A stretch of 64,000 bases of DNA from Malacoraja senta. Its lineage: Eukaryota. The translations under genes and the position numbers were made by a program. Below, piece after piece: positions 1 to 64,000 of the stretch (positions are counted from its first letter, which is position 1; each line of letters begins with the position of its first letter). The DNA lies in contig CM075992.1 of the NCBI GenBank assembly GCA_038087875.1, forward strand, positions 9,178,001 to 9,242,000. Direction: 5' to 3'. The notes beneath the pieces were generated by a model that saw nothing but the letters and a program-made list of their open reading frames with translations, was not told the DNA's origin and did no database searches.

Positions 1-2012
1 ACATACACATACGAGATGTGCAGTGAAATGAAAAGTGGCAATGCTCGCGAATTGTGCAAAAAACAAACAAACAAACTACAAACAGAATCACATATTCACA
101 TATTACATATTTGTGGGAAAAAACTGCAATTTAAAAAAAGACAACAGTAAATTGGTTCAGTAAAGTTAGTCCCTGGTGAGATAGGAGTGTACAGTCCTAA
201 TGGCCTCTGGGAAGAAACTCCTTCTCATCCTCTCCGTTTTCACAGCATGGCGACGGAGGTGTTTGCCTGACCGTAGCAGATGAAACAGTCTGTTGCTGGG
301 GTGGAAGGGGTCTCCCATGATCTTGTTGGCTCTGGATTTGCACCTTCTGATGTATAGTTCCTGCAGGGGGGCGAGTGTAGTTCCCATAGTGCGTTCGGCC
401 CAAAGCATTACTCTCTGCAGAGCCTTCTTGTCCTGGGCAAAGCAGTTCCCAAACCAAATCGTGATATTTCCGGACAAGATGCTTTCCACAGCTGCTGAGT
501 AGAAGCACTGGAGGATCCTCGGAGACACTCTGAATTTCTTCAATTGCCTGAGGTGGTAAAGGCGCTGCCTTGCCTTACTCACCAGTGCTGCAGCGTGTGA
601 TGTCCATGTCATATCCTCAGAGATGTGGACTCCCAGGTATTTAAAACAGCTCACCCTATCCACAGTATCCCCATTTATCTTCAATGGTGTGTACGTCCTC
701 GGATGTTGTGCCCTCCTAAAGTCCACGATCAGCTCCTTAGTTGTTTTTGATATTCAAGAGGAGGCTGTTGTCCTGACACCAGAGTGCCAGATCAGCCACC
801 TCCTCCCGGTAGGCCTTCTCATCATTATCGGAGATCAGGCCCACCACCACAGTGTCATCAGCAAACTTGATTATAGAGTTGGAGCTGAACCTGGCCACAA
901 AGTCATGTGTTTACAGGGAGTACAGTAGGGGGCTGAGGATGCAACCCTGGGGGGATCCTGTGCTCAGGGTGAGGGACTTTGATGTATTTCCTCCCATCTT
1001 GACTACCTGGGGCCTGGCGGTGAGAAAGTCCAGGACCCAGGCACACAGGGGGGTGTTGAGCCCCAATTCCAGCAGCTTCTCGGCAAGTCTGGTGGGGACT
1101 ATCGTGTTGAAGGCTGAACTGAAGTCTATGAACAGCATCCTCATTTAGCCCCCCTTCTGGCTGTCAAGATGAGAGAGAGCGGTGTGCAGAACCTGGGAGA
1201 CTGCATCGTCCGTGGATCTGTTCGGACGGTATGCGAATTGTAGCGGGTCCATGTTGCGAGGGAGGAAGGCGCAGATGTGTTTCTTGACCAGCCTCTCAAA
1301 GCATTTCATGACTACCGAGGTGAGGGCCACCGGACGGTAGTCATTCAGACAAGCTGGGGAGGCATTTTTAGGTACAGGTACAATGATGGATCTTTTGAAG
1401 CAGACAGGAACCACGGACGTGGCCAGGGAGAGGTTGAATATTGTAGTGAGCACCGGAGCTAGCTGCGTAGCACAGGACTTAAGTACTCGCCCCGAGATGC
1501 CATCGGGGCCTGCAGCTTTCCTCGTGTTCACCCGTGTCAGAGCCCTCCTCGCGTCGTGCTCGGACAATGAGAATGTGTGCACATTCCTCCCTTCAGCTTC
1601 GATAGCCAGCCCGCTGACGGTATTGTCGACAGTCGGCAGACCTGGGGTGATGTTGCCCGTCTCGAAACGAGCGTAGAAGGAGTTCAGGTCATCAGCTAGG
1701 GAGGTGCCGGCACTTCCGGTTGAGGGGGGGGGGGGTGCTCCGGTAGTTGGTTACAGTCCGTAGCCCCTACCACAGGCGTCTGGTGTCCTGCTGCTCCATC
1801 TGTGACTCCATCTTGTCTCTGTACCTCCTTTTTGCGTCCTTCACCGCCCTTTGCAGTCGGTAGGACTCTACCTTGTAGACGTCCATATTTCCGGATGCCA
1901 GGCCCGAGTTGTAGGCAGCGGTGCGAGCATTCAAGGCAACACGAACGGACCTGTCTACCCAGGGTTTTTGATTCGGAAAGGTGCTAACCCTTACCGTGGG
2001 GACGATGTTCCC
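1..2012 (-). mobile_element. Rex1/Babar-type LINE, 3' half of RT ORF (frameshifted and interrupted) plus 3' UTR
   Basis: Consecutive minus ORFs 1145-1582 (KAAGPDGISGRVLK...DYRPVALTSVVMKCFERLV...QFAYRPNRSTDDA), 911-1144 ([13 protein letters not shown]...[15 protein letters not shown]) and 166-726 (FKYLGVHI...ARQRLYHLRQLKKF) are non-LTR RT motifs with the Rex/Babar-type C-terminus. Confidence 0.9.
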
Positions 2013-4875
2013 ACGATGAAACCATCCCTAGACCACAGATCAAGGCATGATCAAGAACATCCACCTGTATTTTCTATTGAAATGTAACTTTCTTACATGA
2101 TCACATCCCACAAGGAAGCTCTGGGTGTACATCATTTGTGTTAATATTTAGTGAGGTGTAAAATTCCATTTCCCCTCGCAATGATGATCACTTCTTTAAA
2201 GTCACTTTCCCCAACTCCTCAGAAGAAAAAATCATACAGGGTTACTAAGCATCTCTGCATATGTCCAGTGCTCTCATGTCAAGCACCACTGTCATCCACA
2301 GAGTCAGTCAGGCTACACATTCCAGCTCCAGTCCAACAGGGAATCCAAGCTGATGCCACAGTGCATTCCCAACGGAGTGTAACAACAACCCGGTGTGGTG
2401 GAATGCTGTGAGAGGGGGTGAAGAACAAAGGGGAATTGACACAAAATGCTGGAGTAACTCAGCGGGACACGTATCTGCAGTTCCTTCCTACACAAGTACA
2501 AAGGGGGGCCCGGCATGAAGGGACCACTGTGAAGGGGGGGGGTGAAGAACAGAGGGGGACCCGGCGTGGGAAGACCGCCGTGAGGGGTGGGGAACAAGGG
2601 TGGACCTGGCGCAGGATACTTTGTTGGCGCCCTTTATGTGGCGACTATTTGCATACCTTGGGTGTGTAAGCAAAGAATTTCACTGTGACTTGTAACATGT
2701 GACCATAAAGTATTCAATTCAATTCAATATTCAATTCAACATCTCATCTTCTTTCTGCTGTTCTTTCGTTATTATTCATGCATTAACAAAGAATAGTCCT
2801 AATCTTTTACCCAACATTGATCCCTTAATCGGAAGATCCATAAAAGATTAACTGGTCATTAATCTCATTGCCCCGTGCAAAGATTTTCTCTGCACAAACG
2901 GTCTTATATAATGAATATCTTCTTTAAAAAAAAATCACATTATGTGCTTTGGAGTATTGAATATGTAAGAGGTGCCAGATGTAAAAGGTAAGTTTTGTCT
3001 TCTCCAAGCAAAAAAGTCCTTCAAATAACAGAAAATAAATGTGGTAAATGAACTATGGCCGATATGAGATTTATTTTAACATGAAAACAGACCAAATTGT
3101 CCTGCAGCTAACCTCATAAAAGTTCAGGTTTAAGGAATACCACTTTTCATCTAGCAGGTTATTGTCCTGAAACTAACTAATTCTCCACTGATGCTGCCTG
3201 ACCTTCTGACAATTTCTGCTTTAATTTTGGATTTCTATACCACCATCGGTATTTTGCTTTTGGGACTTTTGTGAATAGATAACTACTTGGTGGGCAAGTA
3301 TTTGTAAAGATGTGATACTAATTTCAAAGATGGAAGGCGAGGCTTCTTCCTATTACGTAGCATTGTAAGCAACATATTGGTTATACTTTGATTAAAGCAA
3401 GCGACATTCATTCCATTGTTTCCATTCAATAGATTGTATATTTGGACCGAGACAGCAGGCAAGTGAGACTGGAAATGACCTCAAGTGCGTCACTCCTGAA
3501 GCATTCTCATACCCTCTCCAGCATCAGGAGGAAATCCTAATCCCAGCCGAGGAGACCCTGCATCTACCTCAGGAGACGTGACTTCAGACACGGGGATGCG
3601 GGGATGGATTTACCAAAGAGGAAGCTGACAACGAAAGCCTCATTCCATCAGTAGCACCAACCAACCCCATTCAAATGCATCACCTTCACTAACACGCTTC
3701 TGTTTTATTCTAATTGATGATTTGTGAACAAATCTGTCAGAATTACTTATGGCATTTTCAATCCTTGAAACATAAATAATCCTTGATGTATTTGCAGAGC
3801 TAGAAGAACCCAAATAAATAATTAAATGTGCAGACACAAAAATGACAGTAACCATTATACACATATCGTTTGGCCGACCGACTTGCAAATACAATAAGCT
3901 GTGAAGGACAAGAGCAAGTCAACAACCTGCCCTGTTATTTATGAAGCAAAACAAGCAAGGCACTTCACAGGAGGATTATTAGGCTAATGTACTCTCTAAA
4001 ACTTCTCTTTTTCAGTATTGAAACCTTGCCAGACTAGAATACAACCATGTTTGTATTATTACTTTCCTGCCTGTCAGGTTATTCCAGATAGTTACACCTT
4101 TTATTGCCTGTAAAGCTGCAGCAAGTAAGAATTCCATTGTTCAGGTTCATACCCATTGCACATGACAAATAAACTCGACTCTTTTGTATAAAGCTGTTCT
4201 TTCACTCAGATATTGCATTCAATATTCTGACTTATTTAAAAGTAATACTTGTCTTAACCTCATTAATCTTTGAATATTTTATAAGCTTCAGTAACATTAC
4301 CACTTTGAAAGCCTTCCCTCCATTTTACAAATTAGCATTAATTTATGGTCTCAGTTCATCCTCAGTATCACCGGGTACTGCCGTTGTTTTCTGCATCTAT
4401 ACTTAACACTTAAAAATATAAATGACTGCTAAATTCTGCTTAATTTATACATTTTGATTCTAAAATCAGAACCGTTTTCATGTATGTTGTGGCAGATATT
4501 GTTGGCGAACTTCAATGCAATTCCACCAGTTGTCTACATACCCTCAATATTTTGTAAAGAAAATAAACATTTATGTAATTATCGAGTCCCGAGCAGTCGT
4601 GCTTTGATTTTAACCATTTTAACCATGTTCTTCTAATTGCAGCAAGGCTGCACCCTCTAAACATGTACCAGCCCATCTGATACCACAGATGAAGGGTTGT
4701 CCATTGATCCAAGCATTGGTGGGTGACCATGAAAGGTTGGGACTGCAGATGTTTAATTGACTAATTGTTTAACACTCATGGTAAGGCATGTGAAAAGGTA
4801 CACAAATAACACGTCTCTGTTAGAAATTGAATCACAAAACACTTGTGCGACAGCTTCAAATTGCCTGTCCCAAGA

Positions 4876-7149: not shown

Positions 7150-8262
7150 AAAGAAGGAACTGCAGATGCTGGAAAATCGAAGGTAGACAAAAATGCTGGA
7201 GAAACTCAGCGGGTGCAGCAGCATCTATGGAGCGAAGGAAATAGGCAACGTTTCGGGCCGAAACCGTTCTTCAGGCTGATAGGGGGTGGGGAGAAGAAAG
7301 GAAAAAAGGCGGAGGAGGAGCCCGAGGGCTGGGGGAGGGGAGGAGACAACCAGAGGGCTGATGAAGGGGAGGGGACAGCAAGGGCTAGCAGAATTGGAGA
7401 ATTCAATGTTCAAGCCCCCAGGATGTAGACTGCCCAAGCGCAATATGAGGTGCATTTCCTCCAATTTCCGGTGTTGCTCGCTGTGGCCATGGAGGAGACC
7501 CAGTACAGAGAGGTCAGATACGGAATGGGAGGGGGAGTTGAAGTGCTGAGCCACAGGGAGGTCAGGTTGGTTATTGCGGACCGACCGGAGGTGTTCGGCG
7601 AAACAATCGCCAAGCCTCCGCTTGGTCTCACCGATGTAGATCAGCTGGCATCTAGAGCAGCGGATGCAATAGATGAGGTTGGAGGAGATGCAGGTGAACC
7701 TCTGTCGCACCTGGAACGACTGCTTAGGTCCTTGAATGGAGTCGAGGGGGGAGGTGAAGGGACAAGTGTTGCATCTCTTGCAGTTGCAAGGGAAAGTACC
7801 CGGGGAGGGGGTGGTACGGGAGGGAAGGGAAGAATTGACAAGGGAGTTACGGAGGGAGCGGTCTTTGCGGAAGGCAGACATGGGGGAGATGGGAAGATGT
7901 GGCGAGTGGTGGGGTCACGTTGGAGGTGGCGAAACTGACGGAGGATCACTTCTTGTATGTGACGGCTGGTGGGGTGAAAGGTGAGGACTAGGGGGACTCT
8001 GCCCTTGTTGTGAATGGGGGGATGGGGAGAGAGAGCAGTGTTGCGGGGTATGGCAGAGACCCTGGTGCGAGCCTCATCTATGGTGGAGGAGGGGAACCCC
8101 CGTTCCCTGAAGAATGAGGACATTTCGGATGCCCTGGTGTGGAACACCTCATCCTGGGAGCAGATGCGGCGTAGACGGAGGAATTGGGAGTGGGGGATGG
8201 AGTCCTTACAGGAAGCAGGGTGGGAAGAAGTGTAGTCCAGATAGCCATGGGAGTCGGTAGGT
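7150..8262 (-). mobile_element. Penelope-like element, 3' part (end of RT region, GIY-YIG endonuclease, terminal repeat)
   Basis: ORFs 7641-8147 and 7225-7881 contain CxxCxxC and NLIYCIRCSRCQLIYIGETKRRLGDCFAEHLR...VAQHFN (GIY-YIG); the terminal repeat recurs throughout the window. Confidence 0.9.
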
Positions 8263-8736
8263 TTAAACCAACATGGTTTAGTTCAAACACAAAAAGCTGG
8301 AGTAACTCAGCGGGTCAGACAGCATCTCTGGAGAAAATAGTTGACGTTTCGGGTCGAGACCCTTCTTCACCCAAACGCCACCTATTCCTTTTCTCCAGAG
8401 ATGCTGTGTGATCTGCTGAGTTACTCCAGCTTTTTGTGTCTATCTTCAGTTTAAACCAGCATCTGTAGTTCCTTCCTACAACATGGCTTAAACATGGTCA
8501 TGGGATTGATGTTTTAAAGGCTAATGTTAATGAGCATTACATATAAGTCTTTAGGGTAGAATAAAAAAATGTTGAACACTTAATTGAGGACTGGTGACAA
8601 TTGCACCAGTGAAATCCTAAACATGAATACCATGGAGTTAACTTGCAGATTCCAAGCCAGAGATTGCTCAGCTTTAGAGATACAGCGTGGAAACAGGCCC
8701 TTTGACCCACCGAGTCCGCACTGACCACTGATCACC

Positions 8737-44099: not shown

Positions 44100-47000
44100 G
44101 GAAAGCACTCAGACCCAACATGTAGGGGGGAAAGAAGAAAACAATAATAAACAGAGATGGTGGGGTTCTTAAATGGGTGAGCAGAGAAACAGAGGGGTGT
44201 AAAATGTGGGCGGAAGCAATAGTAGCAAGGTGAAAAGTAAAAGTGGCAGGCAGACAAATCCAGGGCAAAAATCAAAAAGGGCCACTTTTCAACATAATTG
44301 TATAAGGGGTAAGAGCGTTGTAAAAACAAGCCTGAAGGCTTTGTGTCTCAATGCAAGGAGCATTCGTAATAAAGTGGATGAGCTGAACGTGCAGATAGCT
44401 ATTAATGATTATGATATAGTTGGGATCACGGAGACATGGCTCCAGGGTGACCAAGGCTGGGAGCTGAACATCCAGGGATATTCAATATTCAGGAGGGATA
44501 GAGAGAAAGGAAAAGGAGGTGGGGTAGCGTTGCTGGTTAGAGAGGAGATTAACGGAAAGGAAGGACATTAGCTTGGAAGATGTGGAATCGATATGGGTAG
44601 AGCTGCGAAACACTAAGGGGCAGAAAACGCTGGTGGGTGTTGTGTACAGGCCACCTAGCAGTAGTAGTGAAGTTGGGGATGGCATCAAACAGGAAATTAG
44701 AAATGCGTGCAACAAAGGCAAAACAGTTATAATGGGTGACTTCAATCTACATATAGATTGGGTGAATCAAATTGGCAGGGGTGCTGAGGAAGAGGATTTC
44801 TTGGAATGTATGCGGGATAGTTATCTAAACCAACATGTAGAGGAACCAACGAGAGAGCAGGCTATTCTAGACTGGGTATTGAGTAATGAGGACGGGTTAG
44901 TTAGCAGTCTTGTTGTGCGTGCCCCCTTGGGCAAGAGTGACCATAATATGGTTGAGTTCTTCATTAGAATGGAGAGTGACATTGTTAATTCAGAAACAAC
45001 GGTTCTGAACTTAAAGAAAGGTAACTTTGAGGGTATGAGACGTGAATTGGCCAAGATTGACTGGCAATTAGTTCTAAAAGGGTTGACGGTGGATATGCAA
45101 TGGAAGGCATTTAAAGACTGCATGGATGAACTACAACAATTGTTCATCCCAGTTTGGCAAAAGAATAAATCAGGGAAGGTAGTGCATCCGTGGATAACAA
45201 GGGAAATCAGGGATAGTATCAAAGCAAAAGATGATGCGTACAAATTAGCCAGAAAAAGCAGCATACCAGAGGACTAGGAGAAATTCAGAGACCAGCAGAG
45301 GAGGACAAAGGGCTTAATTAGGAAAGGGAAAATAGATTATGAAAGAAAACTGGCAGGGAACATAAAAACTGACTGCAAAAGTTTTTATAGATATGTGAAG
45401 AGAAAGAGATTAGTTAAAACAAATGTAGGTCCCTTGCAGTCAGAAACAGGTGAATTGATCATGGGGAACAAGGATATGGCGGACCAATTGAATAACTACT
45501 TTGGTTCCGTCTTCACTAAGGAAGACATAAATAATCTGCCGGAAATAGCAGGGGGCCGCGGGTCAAAGGAGATGGAGGAACTGAGTGAAATCCAGGTTAG
45601 TCGGGAAGTGGTGTTGGGTAAATTGAATGGATTAAAGGCCGATAAATCACCAGGGCCAGATAGGCTGCATCCCAGAGTACTTAAGGAAGTAGCTCCAGAA
45701 ATAGTGGCTGCATTAGTGATAATTTTTCAAAACTCTTTAAATTCTGGAGTAGTTCCTGAGGATTGGAGGGTAGCAAACGTAACCCCACTTTTTAAGAAGG
45801 GAGGGAGAGAGAAAACGGGGAATTACAGACCAGTTAGTCTAACATCGGTAGTGGGGAAACTGCAAGAGTCAGTTATTAAAGATGGGATAGCAGCACATTT
45901 GGAAAGTGGTGAAATCATTGGACAAAGTCAGCATGGATTTACGAAAGGTAAATCGTGTCTGACGAATCTTATAGAATTTTTCGAGGATGTAACTAGTAGA
46001 GTGGATAGGGGAGAACCAGTGGATGTGTTGTATCTGGACTTTCAGAAGGCTTTCGACAAGGTACCACATAAGAGATTAGTATACAAACTTAAAGCACACG
46101 GTATTGGGGGTTCAGTATTGATGTGAATAGAGAACTGGCTGGCAAACAGGTAGCAAAGAGTAGGAGTAAACGGGTCCTTTTCACAATGGCAGGCAGTGAC
46201 TAGTGGGGTACCGCAAGGCTCAGTGCTGGGACCCCAGCTATTTACAATTTATATTAATGAGCTGGATGAGGGAATTGAAGGTAACATCTCCAAGTTTGCG
46301 GATGACACTAAGCTGGGGAGCAGTGTTAGCTGTGAGGAGGATGCGAGGAGACTGCAAGGTGACTTGGATAGGCTGGGTGAGTGGGCAAATGTTTGGCAGA
46401 TGCAGTATAATGTGGATAAATGTGAGGTTATCCACTTTGGTGGCAAAAACAGGAAAGCAGACTATTGTCTAAATGGTGGCCGATTAGGAAATGGGGAGAT
46501 GCAGCGAGACCTGGGTGTCATGGTACACCAGTCATTGAAAGTAGGCATGCAGGTGCAGCAGGCAGTGAAGAAAGCGAATGGTATGTTAGCTTTCATAGCA
46601 AAAGGATTTGAGTATAGGAGCAGGGAGGTTCTACTGCAGTTGTACAGGGTCTTGGTGAGACCACACCTGGAGTATTGCGTACAGTTTTGGTCTCCAAATC
46701 TGAGGAAGGACATTATAGCCATAGAGGGAGTGCAGAGAAGGTTCACCAGACTGATTCCTGGGATGTCAGGACTTTCATATGAAGAAAGACTGGATAGACT
46801 TGGCTTATACTCGCTAGAATTTAGGAGATTGACAGGGGATCTTATAGAAACGTACAAAATTCTTATGGGGTTGGACAGGCTAGATGCAGGAAGATTGTTC
46901 CCGATGTTGGGGAAGTCCAGGACAAGGGGTCACAGCTTAAGGATAAGGGGGAAATCCTTTAAGACCGAGATGAGGAAAAACTTTTTCACACAGAGAGTGG

Positions 47001-47226
47001 TGAATCTCTGGAACTCTCTGCCACAGAGGGTAGTTGAGGCCAGTTCATTGGCTATATTTAAGAGGGAGTTAGATGTGGCCCTTGTGGCTAAAGGGATCAG
47101 GGGGTATGGAGAGAAGGCAGGTATGGGATACTGAGTTGGATGATCAGCCATGATCATATTGAATGCCGGTGCAGGCTCGAAGGGCCGAATGGCCTACTCC
47201 TGCACCTATTTTCTATGTATCTATGT
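44100..47226 (+). mobile_element. Near-complete CR1/HER1-type LINE ORF2 (APE endonuclease + RT), inactivated by stops and a small deletion
   Basis: CLNARSIRNK...GITETWL, VYRPP, MGDFN, SDHNMV (APE); KSPGPD, NYRPVSLTS, YLDFQKAFDKV, GVPQGSVLGP, FADD (RT); stops at 45275, 46124 and 46151; left boundary approximate. Confidence 0.93.
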
Positions 47227-50737: not shown

Positions 50738-51576
50738 CTCTCTTCAGGTAGGTCCCAACCTGAAACATTGCCTACCCGTGTTATCCAGAGATGCTGCCTG
50801 ACTTGCTGAATTACCTGCATCATAACAAATTTTCCTTGCCTCTGAAGGACACAAAGTGCTGGAGTAACTCGGCGGGTCAGGCAGCATCTCTGGAGAACAT
50901 GGATAGGTGGCGTTTCTGGTCGGGACCCTTCTTTAGATTCCTTGCCTTTCTCTAATCCTTTACCATTTAACTTATCTTCAACTGGAAATATTTTCTCCTA
51001 TTTTGCTTATGAAAGCACTTCATGATCCTTATTAAATCTCCCGATGTCCTTTGCGTTCTCAGCATGACGCAATACTGCAGAATCACTTCAAACAACCGTT
51101 AATTTCCGTTTGATTTTTCCTTTTGGGAAGCAATAGAACAAGCAATAGTGGAACCAGAGGAAAAATAATTATAAAAGTCAAACGGAAGTGAGTATTATTA
51201 TTGATCAGTAAAGACATCCCAGAATCAGAGCGTCAAGAGAGAAGGTTGCTAAGGAACTGACAACAAAGTCATGTGTGATGCGGCTCTTTCCTTTGCGCAT
51301 CAGCAGATACCTTGGGTAGATTCTAATTTTGAGTCTTTTAGCTGGTGTGATTGGAAGTGGCAGGAAGAGGCGTTAAAACATAATGTTCAGCATCCTGTAA
51401 ACAGGGGAGGTTAAGTCATTTCCTCCCCTCCCCCTCTTCACCCCTGTAGTCCAAACAAGTGACAAAAGGACTAAGCTTCATTGTGATGCCCCTGGTCCAT
51501 CAAGCTGCCAGCACTCACTGTTCAGGTGTGCACATGAAGGTTTGTGTCAACTGTAAGCCAACTATCACCTGTGGCA

Positions 51577-53283
51577 ATGGAGGACGAGACGGCGCCAGCA
51601 CCGGTGGAAGGTGAGGAGGAGACAACAGCACCTGACGAAGGGGCAGCTCCTGAGGAACCAGCAAAGGAGGACGCAGAACCAGAGGCAGAACCAGAGGCCG
51701 AACCAGAGGCCGAAGCAGAGGCCGAACCAGAGGCCGAACCAGAGGCAGAACCAGAGGCAGAACCAGAGGCAGAACCAGAGGCAGCACCAGAGGCAGAACC
51801 AGAGGCAGCACCAGAGGAAGAACCAGAGGAGGCTCCAGCAGAACCAGAGGCAGCACCGGAAGAAACAGCACGCGCAGAATCACCAAAAGATGAGGCAGCA
51901 GCTGTGGAATCACCGAAAGCGGCAACACCTACAGAATCACCAAAAGCGGTGGCAACTCCTCCGGGATCACCCAAGGCAGAATCACCGCAAAAGGAGGCCA
52001 CGCCTGCAGCGTCACCGAAAAAGGCCACGCCAGCAGAGTCACCGAAAAAGGAGGCCACGCCTGCAGAGTCACCGAAAAAGGTGGCCACACCTGCAGCGTC
52101 ACCTAAAGAGACAGGAACACGTGCAGAGTCACCGCAAGAACTAACACGTGCAGAGTCACCAAAAGAAGCAACGCGTGCAGAGACACCAGAGGAAGCGGCG
52201 GCGCGTGCTGAGTCACCAAAAGAGGCACCGACAGAAGAGGCAGCTCGTGCAGGGTCACCAAAAGAGGAGAAAGCGCCAGAGGAAGCAGCAAAAGAGGAGA
52301 AAGCGCCAGAGGAAACAGCAAAAGAGGAGAAAGCGCCAGAGGAAGCAGCAAAAGGGGAAGAGGAGCAAACTTGTCAAAAACCAGACAAGCCACCAGGAGA
52401 GAGCACTGAAGAGAAAGCAAAGGCAGCAGATGAGGCCAAAGAAGATAAAGCAGCAGCAGAAGGAGGCACCTGTGCCAAACCCAAACCGGAAGAGGGCACT
52501 GGTGAAAAAGGAGCCGCTGATGATAAAGCAGCAGCAGCAGCAGCAGCAGAAGGAGGCACCTGTGCCAAACCTAAACCAGAAGAGAGCACTGGTGAAAAAG
52601 GAGGCACAGATGATAAAGCAGCAGCAGCAGCAGCAGGAGGAGGAGGCACCTGTGCCAAACCTAAACCGGAAGAGAGCACCGGTGAAAAAGGAGGCAAAGA
52701 TGATAAAGCAGCAGCAGCAGCAGCAGGAGGCCCCTGCAGAAAATCTAAACCAGAAGAGAGCGCTGGTGAAAAACCAAAACCAGCAGAAGGTATCTGTGGA
52801 AAATCAGCAAAAGATAGCGCTGATACAAAATCAAAGGAGGCAGAAACAAAACAAACAGAAGAGAGTGACAAAGCAAAGCCAACAAAAGTATGCGTTCCTT
52901 GTGCTAAAGCAGCAGCAGCTGTGGGTCCTGGCTGTAAATTCAACCCACCAGTAGATAGCCCCTCCAACAATGCTGAGTTGGCACCAGTCAGCTCCTCTAC
53001 AAACAAAGATGTTACTCCTTGCACAAAACCAAAAGAGGCAGAACCCTGTGGCTGTAAATTCAAATCACCATTAGAAGCCACTAAAACCTCTGAAACATCA
53101 GTTCCAACCTCTGCAAGATCAAAATCGAGCAAATGCTGGGGAAGTGATCAGCGAACAGAGATCTGTGGTTGTGGAAGGCCAAAGCCAGCTGGAGCCAAAA
53201 CCTGTGGAAGTCCACCCAAAGTCATCTGTGGCTGTAAAGACCCCAAAACAGGAGGCAAAACCTCTGGGAAATCAAAGCAATAA
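51577..53283 (+). CDS. Uncharacterised 568-aa low-complexity protein (acidic EPEA repeats, SPK/TP repeats, Cys/Lys-rich C-terminus), single coding exon
   Basis: 1.7-kb stop-free ORF; GCAATGG Kozak; all repeat-length changes preserve frame; upstream acceptor CCCCTGTAG at 51449; AATAAA at 53990. Confidence 0.7.
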   Translation: MEDETAPAPVEGEEETTAPDEGAAPEEPAKEDAEPEAEPEAEPEAEAEAEPEAEPEAEPEAEPEAEPEAAPEAEPEAAPEEEPEEAPAEPEAAPEETARAESPKDEAAAVESPKAATPTESPKAVATPPGSPKAESPQKEATPAASPKKATPAESPKKEATPAESPKKVATPAASPKETGTRAESPQELTRAESPKEATRAETPEEAAARAESPKEAPTEEAARAGSPKEEKAPEEAAKEEKAPEETAKEEKAPEEAAKGEEEQTCQKPDKPPGESTEEKAKAADEAKEDKAAAEGGTCAKPKPEEGTGEKGAADDKAAAAAAAEGGTCAKPKPEESTGEKGGTDDKAAAAAAGGGGTCAKPKPEESTGEKGGKDDKAAAAAAGGPCRKSKPEESAGEKPKPAEGICGKSAKDSADTKSKEAETKQTEESDKAKPTKVCVPCAKAAAAVGPGCKFNPPVDSPSNNAELAPVSSSTNKDVTPCTKPKEAEPCGCKFKSPLEATKTSETSVPTSARSKSSKCWGSDQRTEICGCGRPKPAGAKTCGSPPKVICGCKDPKTGGKTSGKSKQ

Positions 53284-55780: not shown

Positions 55781-57431
55781 GACAAAAAAATGTCCCTTTA
55801 TGGTAAGTCATAAGAACAGGACAAGTGAAAACAGATTCAAATAGTGAAAGAAGATTTAAGGGAAAAAGCGAGAAGAAATTCTTCACACATAGTGGACCCA
55901 ACACAGAGAATATACTTCTGAGTTGCGCACGGGAGCCAGAAACCAGAGAGACATAAATGGCAGTGTGTATGGCAGGCGGTTACAGGAACTGCAGACCTTT
56001 GCTATGTCGATAAGTCATGAAGGCTGATTTTTCTCTCTTCCTAATCTTGTACTCAGTAAGTCAATGGCCGAGGAAATTGAACATTTTACCTGTTTATCAA
56101 GAATTCCAATATGATAGTGCAACATTGTTATAACTTTTCATTACTATTTTCTTCATGCCTAATCTTTGGTATTTTAACATGTCAGGTGCTACATCCAGCA
56201 TGCATAACTTTGGTCAGGTGCTCTGACTATTTGAATTGAGTTTAGTTTATTGTCACGTGTACCAAGGTACAGTGAAGAGCATTTGTTGTATGCTAACCGG
56301 TCAGCGGAAAGGCAATACATGATTACAATCGATCCATCCTCATTATACAGATACACGAGTAGAGATTTAAAAGAGTGGAGCGATTGTAATAAGTGATTAC
56401 AGATAATTCCTTAGATATACTCAATTATCACCATGATGTAGAAACACAGGAAAAAAGTTCTGGAGCTAAGAGATGTAATTTCTTCTTGGGAAAGAGAAAT
56501 GTAGAGACAATTTAATCATAGGCTCTTAAAATTATGTTTGGGTTGTGCAGCATGGATAGGAAAAGAATGCCATGGAATGTGTTGTGTATTTGGATGCTTG
56601 GAACAGACTTTAATAAGGCTTGGACACGGGAGTAAACTAACAAGCTTCTTTATTCCAGGACGCCACCTTGAGACTCCCCCGCGCATGCGTACTTGCACCA
56701 CATCACAAGACATCACATATACTAATTACATATGCTAATTATATCACATACCTAACACTCCTCCCCCTTTAACTTGGAGGCAGGTAATACCATTTCTATT
56801 ACATACCTAACACTCCTCCCCCTTTAACTTGGAGGCAGGTAACACCATTTCTATTACACCGCACTCCACTTTTAACTCAATTTCACCTGCATGGTATATG
56901 CTCTTTATCTACATATCATTGATAATACACTGTTGCACATTGGTATTATTACTTAAACCAAATACATTACACCATGCTTTATGTGTTATCATTTTCTGGT
57001 TCATGTATTTGCTTTGTTTTCCTCTTTGTAGGTGGGATCTGACCCATGGCTGCAAGTTTTCGTTTTCTAGCAGCTTCCTCTGTTCAATTTCCATTCTCTG
57101 CTTATTTATCTGCTCTTGTTGTTTCATGAGATTCTGCAATGCATACCATTTGTCCATTGCTCAGTGAAGGAGGCTCCATGCTGGACTATAGTGAAGTGTC
57201 CTAATCGCAATCGGTCCTGCATACTTTTGTCTTGACCGACAAGCCTCTCTTCTTTAGACTTTTCTATTAGCAGCTTTCTACTCATTGTCACACATTTGTC
57301 TAACCTTTCTTTGTATCATTTAAGCCTTTTCTGTTGTTCATCTATTTGTCTTCTTAAGTCACCTTTCTGGTCTTCATCAAGAAGTAGGATCTATATTGTC
57401 TTTGCAATACAATACTGGCTTTGATTTGTGC

Positions 57432-58660
57432 TCAGTTTAGTTTTCTTGCTTCATAAGGAAGGTAGTGAGAGTGCACTACAATTGTTGTATAATTCAGTTT
57501 GAGGAAGTCTTTCCTATATCGTTTAAGCCTTTGGTATCGTTTCAGCCTTTTCTGTTGTTCATTTATTGGTCCACTTAAGTCACATCTCTGGTTCTTCATC
57601 ACGAAGTAAGATCTATATTGTCTTTGCAATACAACAGTGGCTTTGATTTGTGCTCTGTATAGTTTTCTTGTTTTATAAGCACGGTAGTGAGATTGCACTA
57701 CAACTGCTGTATAATTCAGTTTGAGGAAGTCTTTCCTATATCGTTTAAGCCTTTTGTATCGTTTCAGCCTTTTCTGTTGTGCCTCTATTTGTCTTCTTAA
57801 GTCTTTCCTATACCAACTCATACGGAGTACTGACTGAACTTTTACAGTAGCTCTCTTTTGCTTAACCCACTGCCTAATCACCATACTCTTGTAGGCAGCC
57901 TGAATGGTAATAGTTGCATCCCTCATTGACTGATATTGCACAAACTGGGAACGCCCTATTTTGCATGCTTTGTACCATCTCTGGATCGAAATGACTGCTT
58001 GTTGCATAGCTCTGTAACGTACCCTTAATCGGTAACCACGGTATGCAGCTTGCAGAATGACTACAGCCACCTTTTGCATCAAGAAATGCTTTCTTGTAAT
58101 GCACATCCTTATGAATGACTTAATATGGCGTGCTGCCTTGATTTTCTCAAACAATACTCTGGTTTTGATCCCGCGGTATAACGCCTGAATACAAACCACT
58201 GCTTTTCTCAAACTATTATAATGTCTCACTTGGACATTTCTTATCTGGCATGCTCTGTATCGTTGCTGTACCGCAATGGCAGACCAGCGTAGTTTCTTGA
58301 AATACTGACGCTGTTTATGCATCTGATAATAAGTCTGTATGACCTTGGCAGATTTGTGCATGCACCGCAATTGCTTTCGAACAAGCATTCCTCGGTAGGC
58401 AGCCTGAAGCAGCACAACGCTGCTGCGTACCTTCATGTAAGTTTTGCGATCACTTTCCATTTGAAGGTGTGCCCTATAATGGGTTTGTACTATTATAGCT
58501 GCCAATCTCATTGCCTTGTATTGACAGTATACTCTGTGCATTCTAAATGCTGCTTGTATTACCATTGCTGCCTTCTGTTTGTTCCGGATCTCTCTCCATA
58601 GCTTCATACCCCTGAATTCAGCTTGAATAGCTAGGGTTGCCCTCTGGATGGCAATGTCCC
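57432..58660 (-). CDS. ASPM: IQ-repeat block derived from abnormal spindle-like microcephaly-associated protein, inside the LTR element
   Basis: About 14 IQ motifs (IQAEFRG, IQAAFRM, VQTHYRA, LQAAYRG, IQTYYQM, VQQRYRA, IQALYRG...) with 23-23-27 residue spacing, the higher-order repeat typical of ASPM; a fragment, not the ASPM locus. Confidence 0.85.
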
Positions 58661-59232
58661 TTTGCATTTGACTTCTGTCCTTTTGCACTTGACCTTTGTC
58701 TCTTTGCACTTGACCTTTTTTCTTTTGCACTTGACCTTTGCACTTGACCTTTGTCCCTTTGCACTTGATATTTGTCCTTTTGCACTTGACCTTTGTCCTT
58801 TTGTACTTGACTTTTGTCCTTTTGCACTTGACCTTTGTCCTTTTGCACTTGACCTTTGTCCTTTTGCACTTGACCTTTGTCCTTTTGCACTTGACTTTTG
58901 TCACTTTGCACTTGACTTTTGTCCTTTGAGGTACTACCTGCACTCTTTAGTTCAGGCTCCTTGCCTCTGGATGCCCTTGGAGGTTTTGGTGAGAAATGAG
59001 CCATTAATGCCTCCTTACACTCCTTGTACATTTTATCCGTGGGCTTTGCTGGCCGCAGCAACATATGTAAGGTGTGATAATCGTCTCTTCCTAAGACTAA
59101 TATGAACCATGCTCTCTTCTTCTCCTCTGCAGTGATATCAATGGAAATGAACGAAACCAAGACTTCAGTCCATTTCTCAAAATTGCACCCAGAATCTAAC
59201 TGGGGCAACTTTCCTACCATTTGAATAGCCAT
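58618..59232 (-). CDS. Gypsy/Mag-type Gag N-terminal domain followed by repeat linker
   Basis: AGCATGG start; MAIQMVGKLPQLD...WTEVL...EEKKRAWFILVLGRDDYHTLHMLLRPAKPTDKMYKECKEALMAHFSPKP follows the typical Mag-clade Gag N-terminal pattern. Confidence 0.75.
   Translation of the reverse strand: MAIQMVGKLPQLDSGCNFEKWTEVLVSFISIDITAEEKKRAWFILVLGRDDYHTLHMLLRPAKPTDKMYKECKEALMAHFSPKPPRASRGKEPELKSAGSTSKDKSQVQSDKSQVQKDKGQVQKDKGQVQKDKGQVQKDKSQVQKDKGQVQKDKYQVQRDKGQVQRSSAKEKRSSAKRQRSSAKGQKSNAKGHCHPEGNPSYSS
58670..58928 (-). repeat. 21-nt tandem repeat (CAAAGGTCAAGTGCAAAAGGA)n encoding (KDKGQVQ)n
   Basis: About 12 units; one unit near 58725-58750 is only 13 nt long. Confidence 0.9.
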
Positions 59233-61056
59233 GCTACCTGTTGCTATTCAGGTGCACTATATTCTGTTCTCTCACTGTGTGAAAAAACCAACTGCGGCAA
59301 TCTCCTGTACAGACAAAACACTGATTACCCCAAGATGAGAAAACACAAATCTCCTGTACAGACAAAACACTGACTTCTCCAGGATAAGAAAATACAGTTC
59401 TGTATTAATTAGCTTTAGAAAAAAATCACTGTCTATTACTTAATCTTATAATAGATTTATACTAATAACCCACATTTCATGTTAATAGCCCAACTAGAAC
59501 ATTTTAAACCATATTCCTTCAGAATGCATTACAGGGCTTTTATTGCGACGGATTTCACCGGTCCAGCTTTTATTCTGATGGATTTCACCGCTCCAGCTTG
59601 TCGGCCTGTGAACTCTGGTGCATCCTCGACCTCTCGAGCTGTCCCCACCGGTACCTTTGCTGCTGCTTTTGCTGGCTCTCCTCGGGCCTCACCGTTACTT
59701 TTAAACTCTGTCTCGGATTCTCCGGACCTCCGATGTTGCTGCTGGCTCAGCCGTTGCTGTTGCCTCCGCTGGCTCGCTGCCAAGTCGACTCCCGCTGCCC
59801 CGCTGACTTGCCTGCTGTCTCCCGTGGACATCCTGTGGAAGGTAAGTTGCTGCTGCCGGTCCCCGCTGCTCCAAGCGTTGGGACTGTGCCCCGCCGTCGG
59901 GGGCTGGCTACGCCCTGTGCCCCGCTTCTCTCTCTCGTGGTCGGCTTTCTCCACTCTCGGCCTTCTCCCACGACCGGGGTTTCTCCACTCTCGGCCGTCT
60001 CCCGCGACCGGGCTTTCTCCACTCTCGACCTTCTCCCGCGACCGGGCTTTCTCCGCTTTCTTCCCCGACCGGGCTGAATCTGCTCCCGACCGGGCTGAAG
60101 TGCTTGAGTGCTGTGTCCTGCTTCTCTTGCGCGGACCCACTCTTCGCTTGGGGCCGGACTTCCTCTCACGTCCGGGCTTTCCCCGCTCTCGACCGTCTCT
60201 TGCGACCGGGCTTTCTCGGCTTCTCTCGCGGGCCTGTCCGCTTTTCCACTCACGGTCGGGCTGACTCTGCTCCCGACCGGGCTTTCTCTGCTTTCTCCCC
60301 CGGGCTGACTGTTCCCGGCCGGGCTGAAGACTCAGCTTCTGTCGGTGGCTTCTCTGGACCTGTCCGTGGCCTTCACGGTACGAGGCCTTCATCCGACGTC
60401 TGTGGCTGCTGCTTGGGCCTGGCTGTGGGCTGCACAGCCCTGGATACATTCCAGGTAAGTTGACACCGTCGCTCCTAGCTTCCAGCTGTGCTCGGTGACC
60501 CTTACTGCCTTGCTTGTCTTCACTGCACTCTTCCCGTTCCGACCTTTTTTTTCTTTTTAGCGCCAATTCAAAACCATTTGCCGCCAAATCTTTTTGCTTG
60601 GTGCTGTTCCACTTTGTTTTCAAATACAACCTCTATTTTTAACTTGTTTTCATTTTTCTTGGCTGTCCTTGTTCTTATCTTCTTCGTTCTTTTATCCTCG
60701 TCGCCAATTGTTGTGTATTTGGATGCTTGGAACAGACTTTAATAAGGCTCGGACACGGGAGTAAACTAACAAGCTTCTTTATTCCAGGACGCCACCTTGA
60801 GACTCCCCCGCACATGCGTACTTGCACCACATCACAAGACATCACATATACTAATTACATATGCTAATTATATCACATACCTAACAGAATGTGTGAAGGT
60901 CCAAAACTCGTATCCTTAAGTACAAGATGGTTAATTGTCATGTAGAACATTAGGCAGCAATGTGTATACTCAAAGTGGTGAGAATAAGGAACTTGTTACC
61001 TAATAAATTGGTTGAGCCAAAAACGTAGATCTTTTCATTATAAAATTATCAAATAC

Positions 61057-64000
61057 ATTTTTTTTTTAATTTTTTAATTTTTATTTATTAGAAGTACATT
61101 ACATTAGAACTACATACATTAGTACTCGTCACATATATCTTCGTACAATTAATGTACTCCGTTTGTTTTTTACACTAGTAAAGGGAAAGGATGAAATTGA
61201 GAGAAAGAAGAAAGTGAAGGAAAAAGTGAATGTGTAGAAAACATGACAACAAGAAAGAACGAAGACCCTATAAGAACAAAATTAAAAACAAAAGAAAAAG
61301 AGTTAAGAAATAGACCCTAGAAAAGAAGAAGAAAGAGAAAGAGGGAAAAGAGAAAAACAAATAGTTTTTGTAAGCATCACGCAAATGGGACATACCAACT
61401 CTCCAACTTTCATCCCCCCTTACCTGACCTCAGTTTGTTTTTTTAAGGTACTTTTGCACCCTATATTTGTAATAATTCTATAAATGCAGACCACGTCAGG
61501 TGGAAGTGATCTGGTTTACCTGCCAGGAGGAGTCTTATCTCTTCTAGGTGTAATGTTTCGAACATATTTGAAATCCACATGTTTATAGCTGGTATTGGAG
61601 CCTGTTTCCAAAATTTTAGGATTAGCTTTTTTCCAGTTATTAACCCATAGTCTATTAGTTTCTTTTGGAACACATTTAGTTCTGGACCATCTTCCGTTAT
61701 TCTGAAGATAATCCATTCTGCTTTGGGTATCAGTTTTATTTTAAATAATTTTGTAAAGATTTCAAAATTTTCAATCCAAAATTTTTGAATTTTTGTACAG
61801 AAAACAAATGAGTGCGCTGTAGTAGCTTCTTGGGATTGACATTTATCACAAATGGATGATACATTGGGGAACATTTTATGGATTTTAGTTTTGGAATAAT
61901 ATAATCTAAGTAAGATTTTAAATTGTATTAAAATGTGTCTTGCATTAATCGAACATTTATGCACGTTTAATAAGTGTTCATTCCACCTTTCCTTTGAGAT
62001 TTTAATAGCTAATTCTTGTTCCCAGTCTCTTCTGATACCCTCCGTAGATGGTATTTCTACATTTAAGATAATATTATACAAATATGATATTAAGTTTGCT
62101 GATTCAGCTTTTATCTGCATTGCATCATCCAATACATCTGCTGGGCTATTATAATGATCTTTTGTATATTTTTTCAAATAGTCGCATATTTGAAAATATT
62201 TAAGATATTGATTATTTACGAGTTTATATTTTATTTGTAATTGTTGAAATGAAAGTAATTTTCCAGTTTCATACAAGTCACCGAACGTTTTAATTCCTAG
62301 TCTATCCCAGTGTGTGAAAGATTTATCTATAATAGAGGGATTAAACGAAGGGTTATTAACTATGGGAGATAAAAAGTGATAGATTTCATAATTTTAAATT
62401 TTGTTTTATTTGTTTCCAAATTCGGATTGTGCTATGTATAATTGGGTTCTTATTATAATTTATGTTATTCAGTTTCATTGGTGAGAGGAGGATCGCTCCA
62501 ATGTTTCCAGAGGAGCAATCCTCTCTCCATTACAATCCAGTCCACTTGCTGGGCAGAGTTATCCATCAGTTGAATCATATTTTTAATATTTACTGACCAA
62601 TAATAATACATGAAATTAGGTAATGCTAAATCCCCTAATACTTTAGGTTTATTCAAGTGAGTTTTTTGTATTCTATGTGATTTATAGTCCCATATAAAAT
62701 TAGTGATTTCTGAGTCCAGTTTTTTTTTAAACTTCTTTGGTAAGTATATAGGAATCAATTGGAATAGGTATAAAATTTGTGGTAGAAAGATCATTTTTAT
62801 TGCATTTATTCGGCCTATTAAAGACATCGGGAGCGTTTTCCAAAATTTAATTAGTGTGTTTAATTTATTAAGGAGGGGATCAAAATTTGCTTTAAACATA
62901 CCTTGATATGTTCTAGTAATTTCGATTCCCAAGTATTTGAATTTTTCTGTAGCTATTTTAAAAGGGAATTTTAAAAGATGTGTTGAATCTTTCGGTTTTA
63001 TTGACATAATTTCACTTTTATTCCAATTTATTCTGTATCCAGAAAAAGATCCAAAGTCTTCAATTAAATTTAATATATTTGGTATAGTAATTTGAGGTTT
63101 TGTAATGTACAGTAATATATCATCCGCGTATAAAGATATTTTATTATTTGAATCTTTAGTATTATACCCATGGATATCAGGGTGTATTCTAATTTTTTCT
63201 GCTAACGGTTCAATAATAAGAGCAAACAACTGTGGTGATAATGAGCATCCTTGTCTATTTCCCCTTGATAGTTGAAATTTCGAGGATAATATGTTATTAG
63301 TTAGTATTCTAGCTGTAGGTTTATTATATAATAATTTAATCCATAGAATAAAATTCTCTCCCAGTTGGAATTTTTGTAATACTTTATCCATATAATTCCA
63401 TTCTACTTGGTCAAATGCTTTTTCAGCATCCAACGAAATAATTGATAATTCTTGTTCTTCAGATTTGTGTGAGTGCATTATGTTGAGTAAACGTCTCATA
63501 TTGTTAGATGAGTATCTCTTAGGGATAAACCCCGTCTGATCTGGGTTTATTAGTTTACTAATATATTTACTTAATCTTCTAGCTAATGTTTTTGCTAATA
63601 TTTTTTGATCTGTGTTTAACAATGCTATAGCTCTATATGAACCCAGTTCTTATATATCTTTGTCTTTCTTAAGTATTAGTGTAATCGTTGATTCCGCTAA
63701 TGTATCAGGTAGTATTTGTTTTTTAAAAGCATATTGGTACATTTTTTGTAATCTTGGTATAATTTTGTCATAGAAGCTTTTATAAAATTCATTAGTAAAT
63801 CCATCAGGACCTGGTGTTTTTCCATTCTTTAGTGAGTTTATTGTATCTTCTAATTCCTTAATTGAGATTTGTGCACCCAATTCCTCTTGTTCCTTCAACT
63901 CTAACTTTGGAAGATTACAATTATCCAAAAACTCTGTGATTTTATTGGAGTCAGTTGTCGTTTTAGATGTATACAAATTCTCATAAAATTGCGCAAATCT
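61057..64000 (-). mobile_element. L1-clade LINE, ORF2 RT and C-terminal region (frameshifted), 3' UTR and A-rich tail; runs off the window
   Basis: GKTPGPDGFTNEFYK, LNTDQKILAK, DQTGFIPKR, SLDAEKAFDQVEW, RGNRQGCSLSP, SLYADD, CDKC...H...C motif; T-rich tract at 61057-61088. Confidence 0.92.

Follow-up and report, generated by a model that had tools for sequence, protein, structure and literature searches.

The 64,000-nucleotide stretch of Malacoraja senta DNA analysed here (the window; assembly GCA_038087875.1, contig CM075992.1, forward-strand positions 9,178,001 to 9,242,000) holds, at 56580-60886 and in minus orientation, a copy of a non-autonomous Ty3/Gypsy retrotransposon family of skate, in which fragments of two host genes, ASPM and the Tousled-like kinase 2 gene TLK2, stand behind a truncated gag. 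The family was searched for in the 1.94-Gb assembly, where the window lies on the contig numbered C16. The window copy has two long terminal repeats (LTRs) of 178 bp, beginning with TG and ending with CA, the 5′ LTR at 60709-60886 (AATAAA at 60778-60783) and the 3′ LTR at 56580-56757 (AATAAA at 56649-56654), both on the minus strand; they are 98.9% identical, and their two differences, at LTR positions 42 and 104, are both CpG transitions. A 5-bp target-site duplication (TSD) without strand, GAATG, borders the element on the left (56575-56579) and on the right (60887-60891). The primer-binding site (PBS) at 60694-60706 (minus), TGGCGACGAGGAT, is identical in L045, a pol-bearing parent copy described below, and we take it to be complementary to tRNA-Ser(GCT), while the polypurine tract (PPT) at 56758-56771 (minus) is doubled by a 55-bp tandem repeat (56732-56841). 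Terminal TG...CA, PBS, PPT and TSD are all present, which identifies the element as an LTR retrotransposon, and every one of these features listed in a preliminary description, made from the sequence alone, was seen again.

The interior also lies on the minus strand and starts with a long 5′ leader (59233-60693), alignable to the parent in part, whose G+C-rich repeats of 34, 30 and 49 bp folded no better than shuffled sequence (z = −0.9). The truncated gag (58944-59232) starts with an ATG at 59232 and encodes the capsid N-terminal domain (parent residues about 1-85) fused in frame to the post-capsid linker. Pfam did not recognise this Gag, and inspection of open reading frames (ORFs) and Pfam matches from gag to the 3′ region gave no pol match, in agreement with the preliminary description of a Gag N-terminus lacking pol. 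It is followed by a tandem array of a 21-bp (7-residue) linker unit at 58655-58927, in place of the two zinc knuckles of older copies, by the ASPM cargo (57585-58680), the ASPM-TLK2 junction (57309-57803) and the TLK2 cargo (57025-57362), and finally by a 3′ untranslated remnant of the pol-bearing parent (56797-56998), the return from cargo to parent falling at about the parent's pol stop codon.

Origin of the two cargoes

The first cargo consists of IQ repeats, about 350 codons of them in the family, and corresponds in the window copy to residues ~2800-3141 of Amblyraja ASPM. It is stop-free down to 57432 and belongs to a stop-to-stop frame of 504 codons (57432-58946; Pfam IQ, E=2.4e-22) with motif spacings of 23, 23, 27, 23, 23, 27, 22, 23, 23, 27 and 22, so that both the 23-23-27 periodicity and the stop-free IQ codons noticed at first were recovered. 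Compared with skate ASPM, the cargo at 58643-57801 aligned without gaps over 281 residues, with 79.0% identity to Rhinoraja and 77.9% to Amblyraja; identity to ASPM of other fishes was 66-67% for rays and sawfish, 59% for Narcine, 62-66% for sharks and 46% for sturgeon. Older copies of the family shared 86-88% identity with skate ASPM over about 350 residues. When 10 copies and 14 host ASPMs were placed in a protein tree (a single one, without topology test), the copies formed one clade (99), sister to ASPM of Amblyraja and Leucoraja (96), with Rhinoraja outside, confirming the ASPM origin proposed for the IQ block. Because the copies are monophyletic and nested by skate ASPM, the donor host was a skate and the capture a single one, which probably took place in the rajid line. 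The IQ region of skate ASPM itself carries recent internal repeats of ~219 residues, and the cargo corresponds to the last repeat with the unique sequence after it.

The ASH and CH domains of ASPM are not in the cargo, whose IQ repeats stand alone between LTRs and behind gag; an ASPM gene or an ordinary processed pseudogene is ruled out by this content and context. Host ASPM was not found in the assembly with queries drawn from the ASH family, a teleost CH region, a long IQ protein, a bird C-terminus and the N-terminal 573 residues of skate ASPM. Host TLK2 is present, on contig C10, although host ASPM was not found, and the missing match is taken as an assembly gap rather than as gene loss.

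The frame downstream of ASPM matched Tousled-like kinase 2 (PDB 5O0Y, E=2.9e-47, chain residues 68-168 and 233-252). A TLK2 pattern search of the assembly returned two matches, one old copy of the family and one host exon with splice borders on C10, where five consecutive TLK2 exons with AG/GT borders extend over 8 kb; these five abut in older copies, with 89-100% identity to the host. Three of them are kept in the window copy, at 57259-57362 (93% identity to the host), 57123-57260 (90%) and 57025-57122 (87%), all intron-less and together forming an interrupted cargo, while the two further exons of older copies are not in it. As four introns are gone, the TLK2 fragment was taken from spliced mRNA. 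The kinase domain lies outside the cargo, and the ESM Atlas gave no useful match to the TLK2 tail. A young sub-branch (L008 and relatives) has three deletions in the TLK2 tail, of 1, 31 and 1 base, which exit and then restore the frame with no stop.

In the family arrangement, one frame is common to the capsid N-terminal domain, ASPM and TLK2. The junction of the window copy contains 222-bp tandem duplications and a 72-bp in-frame insert holding TLK2-derived sequence, both lengths being divisible by three, and TLK2 pieces lie within the duplicated region at 57531-57584 and 57753-57803. The rearranged IQ copies of the preliminary description do exist as duplications, but they are mostly junction duplications that include the second cargo, which had been overlooked. 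In the window copy itself the frame is broken: one linker unit (about 58733-58746) measures 13 bp instead of 21 bp, placing Gag and the IQ block in different frames, and its TLK2 part is interrupted by stops and a frameshift. With 0.49% private differences (third of 43 sampled copies, median 1.16%), this copy is among the youngest sampled; it is young yet frame-broken, that is, dead on translation.

The pol-bearing parent and the spread of the family

The parent was located with a related Gag-Pol query, as pol adjoined one of the best LTR matches. Two copies, L045 and L046 (5.3-5.9 kb), show the order gag, protease, reverse transcriptase, RNase H and integrase, with LTRs 80-89% identical to those of the window element and an identical PPT; these shared features, along with the PBS of L045, support the existence of a pol-bearing partner. 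Their reverse transcriptase is closest to Ty3 (best PDB matches Ty3 reverse transcriptase, E=1.7e-52), and Pfam recognised RVT_1, RT_RNaseH and rve, with Integrase_H2C2 below the cut-off. All three pol-bearing copies that were aligned (L043, L045 and L046) match the window element at both LTR and gag. When 41 of the best LTR matches were screened for younger pol-bearing helpers, a hand count tied 21 by position to cargo and one to pol and left 19 unassigned. No env-sized ORF was found in L045 or L046, where a few hundred bases lie between the end of the integrase and the PPT, and since the parent has no env, the family is not a retrovirus. L045 and L046 are broken, their own LTR pairs being 94-95% alike, and L043 has a stop in the matched part. 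The claim that the element was recently mobile holds in a relative sense: the window copy is young among those sampled, but its own frame is broken, and the three pol-bearing copies looked at are older and broken too.

The short LTRs (157-178 bp) and 5-bp TSD fit the Mag clade, and membership is plausible on these sequence features. Mag-lineage Ty3/Gypsy elements are described with short LTRs, mostly 5-bp TSDs, a Ser or Leu PBS, repeats in the 5′ leader and one or two ORFs (PMC3286476).

Compared with the parent, family Gag has lost residues about 85-200 by an in-frame deletion. An AlphaFold model of the parent Gag, built on a 7-sequence alignment with a mean predicted local distance difference test score of 71, places residues 85-165 in the capsid C-terminal domain, by similarity to those of PEG10, murine leukaemia virus and MOAP1 (Z 10.4-10.8), and whole capsids such as PNMA2 align over residues 7-164 of the model; the capsid C-terminal domain (parent residues ~85-165) is accordingly the part assigned by the model as lost. 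The switch into ASPM lies at the end of the second zinc knuckle and the return at about the pol stop, so the cargo spans the region from the end of gag to about that stop and replaces the internal ORFs. About 8-9 letters with one mismatch are shared at the TLK2-element switch point and may represent microsimilarity; the two ASPM junctions show similarity at the level of codons (Gln-Gln; Cys). The zinc knuckles are retained in 7 of the 43 sampled copies, and most others hold 1-29 units of the 21-bp repeat there. Capture of cellular sequence between the LTRs, as first proposed, is thus borne out; what had gone unnoticed was TLK2, the in-frame fusion to Gag and the deletion of the C-terminal half of the capsid, its C-terminal domain.

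A pattern of 34 bases spanning the ASPM-TLK2 junction, with at most two mismatches allowed, gave 198 matches in the assembly, and the reversed control gave none. Since double junctions and flank-duplicated copies are included and diverged copies are missed, a fair count is roughly 150-200 or more. Each of the three independent copies with both flanks available has a 5-bp TSD of its own, and in four LTR pairs the two repeats are 97.5-98.9% alike. The cargo is therefore family-wide, and neither of two outcomes named beforehand as counting against the preliminary description, an IQ block not derived from ASPM or cargo in one copy only, occurred. Many matches on contigs C1, C2 and C16 are paired 40-110 kb apart with near-identical scores, and would represent either segmental duplications of recent date or haplotypes left uncollapsed. 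The second copy closest to that of the window, 80 kb away (L002, C16:9153352-9160658), has identical flanks and TSD and 4 differences in 7307 bases; these shared flanks and TSD rule it out as an independent insertion and mark it as a regional duplication or an uncollapsed haplotype. In two copies (L005 and L019) a PPT precedes the 5′ LTR or a PBS follows the 3′ LTR, i.e. tandem elements share an LTR.

The family extends beyond one species. The Leucoraja erinacea RefSeq protein XP_055489032.1 ('ASPM homolog isoform X1', 290 residues) is a Gag-linker-IQ fusion with 81% identity to young copies, and the sole fused protein among the four matches of its search (210-669 residues); to judge from its sequence, it is a misannotated retrotransposon copy. 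The stretch is present in 20 of 23 listed sequencing runs (11 studies), none of these holders being recorded as RNA and the source sample possibly being among them, and seven organism labels contain 38-48% of the sampled words. Four runs compared in detail with copy L034 (three guessed to be RNA, one of them 'probably DNA' and in the form of contigs) contain element-type pieces, for which DNA, host ASPM mRNA and intronic read-through are inseparable as sources. Of the 28 copies in which the start of gag was located, 9 continue in frame into the IQ block.

The assembly also contains a separate, apparently young Ty3/Gypsy family, many copies of which have open frames of 1100-1380 codons (for example C6:19315208-19317157 and C2:177005169-177007118). 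Elsewhere in the window, an open frame of 581 codons at 51538-53283 (plus strand), with low-complexity Glu/Pro/Ala/Lys repeats, several tandem arrays and no Pfam match, is possibly a large exon of a host gene. Remnants of long interspersed nuclear elements lie at 61461-62393 (minus), 44528-47134 (plus), 7225-8282 (minus) and 166-1750 (minus), which we take to be L1/Tx1-like, CR1-like and others.

Selection on the cargo frame

For the analysis of selection, 62 loci were fetched, of which 43 were distinct cargo copies; the 19 dropped loci were nine re-fetches or a flanked duplicate, one near-identical neighbour, three host loci and six pol-bearing copies. Following the logic of PMC9073684, private variants were read as neutral decay after insertion and shared variants as changes in transmitting lineages. 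In the ASPM frame, new stops outside CpG made up 35 of 466 private variants, against 1 of 193 variants shared by at least two copies (p=9e-5) and none of the 107 present in three or more (p=0.001), and this depletion was unseen in the other five frames (p=0.06-1). The missense/silent ratio of ASPM fell from 327/104 among private to 70/37 among shared variants (p=0.036). For TLK2, where the host exons served to polarise the variants, it was 85/25 among private and 24/17 among shared ones (p=0.026), and the missense depletion pooled over ASPM and TLK2, with stops removed, had a ratio of 0.55 (p=0.003). Statistically, then, the ASPM frame stayed open in lineages with several descendants, and amino-acid changes in it were fewer than expected. 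That the frame was kept open by selection during spread is well supported, and the support for amino-acid constraint on the cargo is weak. According to Dazeniere et al. (PMC9073684), a fall of this kind would be predicted only for a product acting in cis.

An element without pol that is under selection needs a benefit in cis, and we favour, with modest confidence, complete translation of a fusion tagged with the capsid N-terminal domain as that benefit, protecting the RNA and aiding its entry into helper particles. Both mRNA fragments, ASPM and spliced TLK2, lie in sense and in frame behind a gag lacking the capsid C-terminal domain; they would have been captured as reverse transcriptase switched templates onto co-packaged mRNAs. 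The chimera was copied many times and kept evolving, the zinc knuckles giving way to the 21-bp repeat and the junction being duplicated, and its copying would have used Gag-Pol of the parent family in trans. Template switching and mobilisation in trans accord with the model of Tan et al. (PMC5131818) and with the anatomy of the element. An RNA translated to its end would yield a long, basic, helical protein bearing the capsid tag and would escape nonsense-mediated decay; it may also be handed co-translationally to helper particles more often than an RNA with a premature stop. The cargo would be a tolerated, weakly constrained body of this fusion rather than a faithful ASPM or TLK2.

Several observations weigh against a benefit of this kind. 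A capsid lacking its C-terminal domain is unable to build a lattice, and no signal came from the few variants of the Gag N-terminus (64/22 versus 11/3, p=1), the part that the idea of co-assembly depends on. Read-through from gag to TLK2 was seen in none of the 28 copies with a located start, 15 of the 43 lying outside this count. Among ASPM variants present in at least five copies the missense/silent ratio was 45/19 and non-significant (p=0.21-0.35), conserved ASPM sites were spared marginally (p=0.07), and IQ core positions were not clearly spared (8/100 versus 41/317 shared changes, p=0.21). Stops arising from CGA-to-TGA change recur at three codons in several copies, which would count against the reading if they were inherited; being scattered over the tree, they are read as recurrent CpG decay. 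The tests were uncorrected for multiplicity and counted variants per site rather than per branch, on copies chosen by similarity. PMC9073684 also points to the difficulty of explaining cis-targeting in LTR elements, and to the fact that the pattern can be imitated by a few transcribed source loci.

The stop signal far exceeds the missense signal, as expected if the cargo were passive, with no protein role at all, and premature stops were removed only since they destabilise the genomic RNA; sense, in-frame capture would then merely be what survives. In the younger subfamily the cargo has lost resemblance to host ASPM (74-80% identity, down from 87%), conserved sites included, the IQ cores are unspared, and repeat expansions and junction duplications are frequent, all of which suits such a cargo. 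The missense depletion, however, persists without stops and is frame-specific, and we regard a wholly passive cargo as rather unlikely, though it is the alternative to be taken most seriously.

In an extension of what the preliminary description proposed, the cargo might act through its donor functions, the IQ array binding calmodulin and full-length ASPM or microtubules and the coil binding TLK partners, so that the element's RNA or helper particles are carried to spindle poles or germ-line nuclei, or the cell cycle is perturbed to its advantage. Both donors are cell-cycle genes, joined in one shared frame on which selection acted. The IQ-rich C-terminal half of Drosophila Asp binds calmodulin and full-length Asp, with weak spindle localisation (PMC4674283), and crocodilian endogenous retroviruses retained captured KIT-ligand and nectin3 under purifying selection (PMC4299795). 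The IQ cores, however, are not significantly spared, and the microtubule-binding N-terminus and CH domains of ASPM and the kinase of TLK2 are not carried. Of the TLK2 coiled coils, the cargo presumably holds just the end of the first (CC1). Dimerisation of TLK2 requires CC1, and deletions of CC2 or CC3 had no clear effect (PMC6023931). ASPM and TLK2 may also simply be abundant mRNAs in dividing germ cells. Such activity is improbable in our view, and equally so the bolder proposal that Gag-ASPM-TLK2, as a heritable counterpart of the gag-myb-ets fusion, uses its calmodulin-binding IQ rod and kinase coil to bring the element's RNA or helper particles, in dividing germ cells, to chromatin or the spindle pole and thereby gained a lasting transmission advantage across skate species.

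Selection could instead act on the host, which would keep one or a few source loci, for example as a capsid-poisoning restriction factor or a small-RNA source, with the dispersed copies as by-products. A capsid N-terminal domain without its C-terminal partner, on a bulky tail, could indeed poison helper particles, and the Leucoraja RefSeq model carries an isoform label; but successive subfamilies with differing LTRs, linkers and junction duplications still spread, no conserved intact locus occurs among the 28 assessed copies, and small RNAs do not need an open frame, making this very unlikely. An assembly artefact or a single post-insertion event, for which the inflation of counts by paired matches of identical score 40-110 kb apart and the unfound host ASPM could speak, can practically be dismissed given 198 junction matches over many contigs with distinct TSDs, the same fusion in an independent Leucoraja record and the seven organism labels.

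Comparison with known systems

Host fragments captured by LTR elements are, as a rule, rare, present in few copies and in decay; the skate double capture instead became a successful family, and the frame kept open during its spread, a sign of selection acting on the element itself, suggests that the borrowed sequence mattered to the parasite. The family offers, through about 200 dated copies in an older and a younger group and through the parent and the host genes, a natural experiment on the origin of chimeric proteins, and it bears on whether parasites exploit the cell-division machinery. It also contaminates annotation in skates, as the RefSeq 'ASPM homolog' shows, and ASPM and TLK2 read counts and gene-family estimates will be distorted there. 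A literature search, with repeat libraries of the Repbase/Dfam type outside its scope, found no description of the family, and the terms 'ASPM', 'LTR' and 'Gypsy' were not found in the main text of the little skate genome paper. The family differs from known cases in what it combines: it is a vertebrate Gypsy element, has two cell-cycle genes fused in frame to Gag and about 200 junctions, occurs in more than one species and shows selection specific to the frame.

Four TLK2 introns are gone, the cargo has neither a poly(A) tail nor a TSD of its own, and the chimera was copied again; it is a two-parent LTR-mediated retrocopy turned non-autonomous family. LTR-mediated retrocopies were described by Tan et al. 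(2016) in zebrafish, chicken and mammals, and with insertions at 18 places for nine retrocopies in Drosophila; the cases are young, and most older ones are out of frame (PMC5131818). As there, mRNA fragments replace part of the internal ORFs between LTRs, putatively with short shared letters at the switch points, and a two-gene chimera and further copying as a non-autonomous element have their likeness among those cases. The skate family departs from the cases in that account: its junctions number about 200, it has split into several subfamilies and is present in more than one species, and selection during its spread was specific to the frame. The published description of Mag-lineage elements, in the part used here, mentions no host cargo (PMC3286476).

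Several host-gene fragments fused into a chimeric ORF are also the hallmark of Bs1 of maize, from which the skate family differs in being large, spreading and vertebrate. Bs1 has a low copy number. It is an LTR element with fragments of three metabolic or membrane host genes in a translated chimeric ORF, described as useful to its host (PMC13317346). CrocERV29 (KIT-ligand) and CrocERV31 (nectin3) replicated after capture of host mRNA, to 9 and 6 copies, and their cargo is under purifying selection (PMC4299795). These are retroviruses, each with one whole-protein cargo in a separate ORF beside or in place of env, in contrast to the skate family, a Gypsy element with pol replaced and two partial cargoes fused to Gag.

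The defective transforming retroviruses E26 (gag-myb-ets) and MC29 (gag-myc) are likewise helper-dependent, and encode one or two captured cell-growth genes as in-frame fusions to a truncated Gag. They are somatic, infectious and short-lived isolates selected by tumour growth, whereas the skate family has no env, is transmitted in the germ line and has persisted over species splits.

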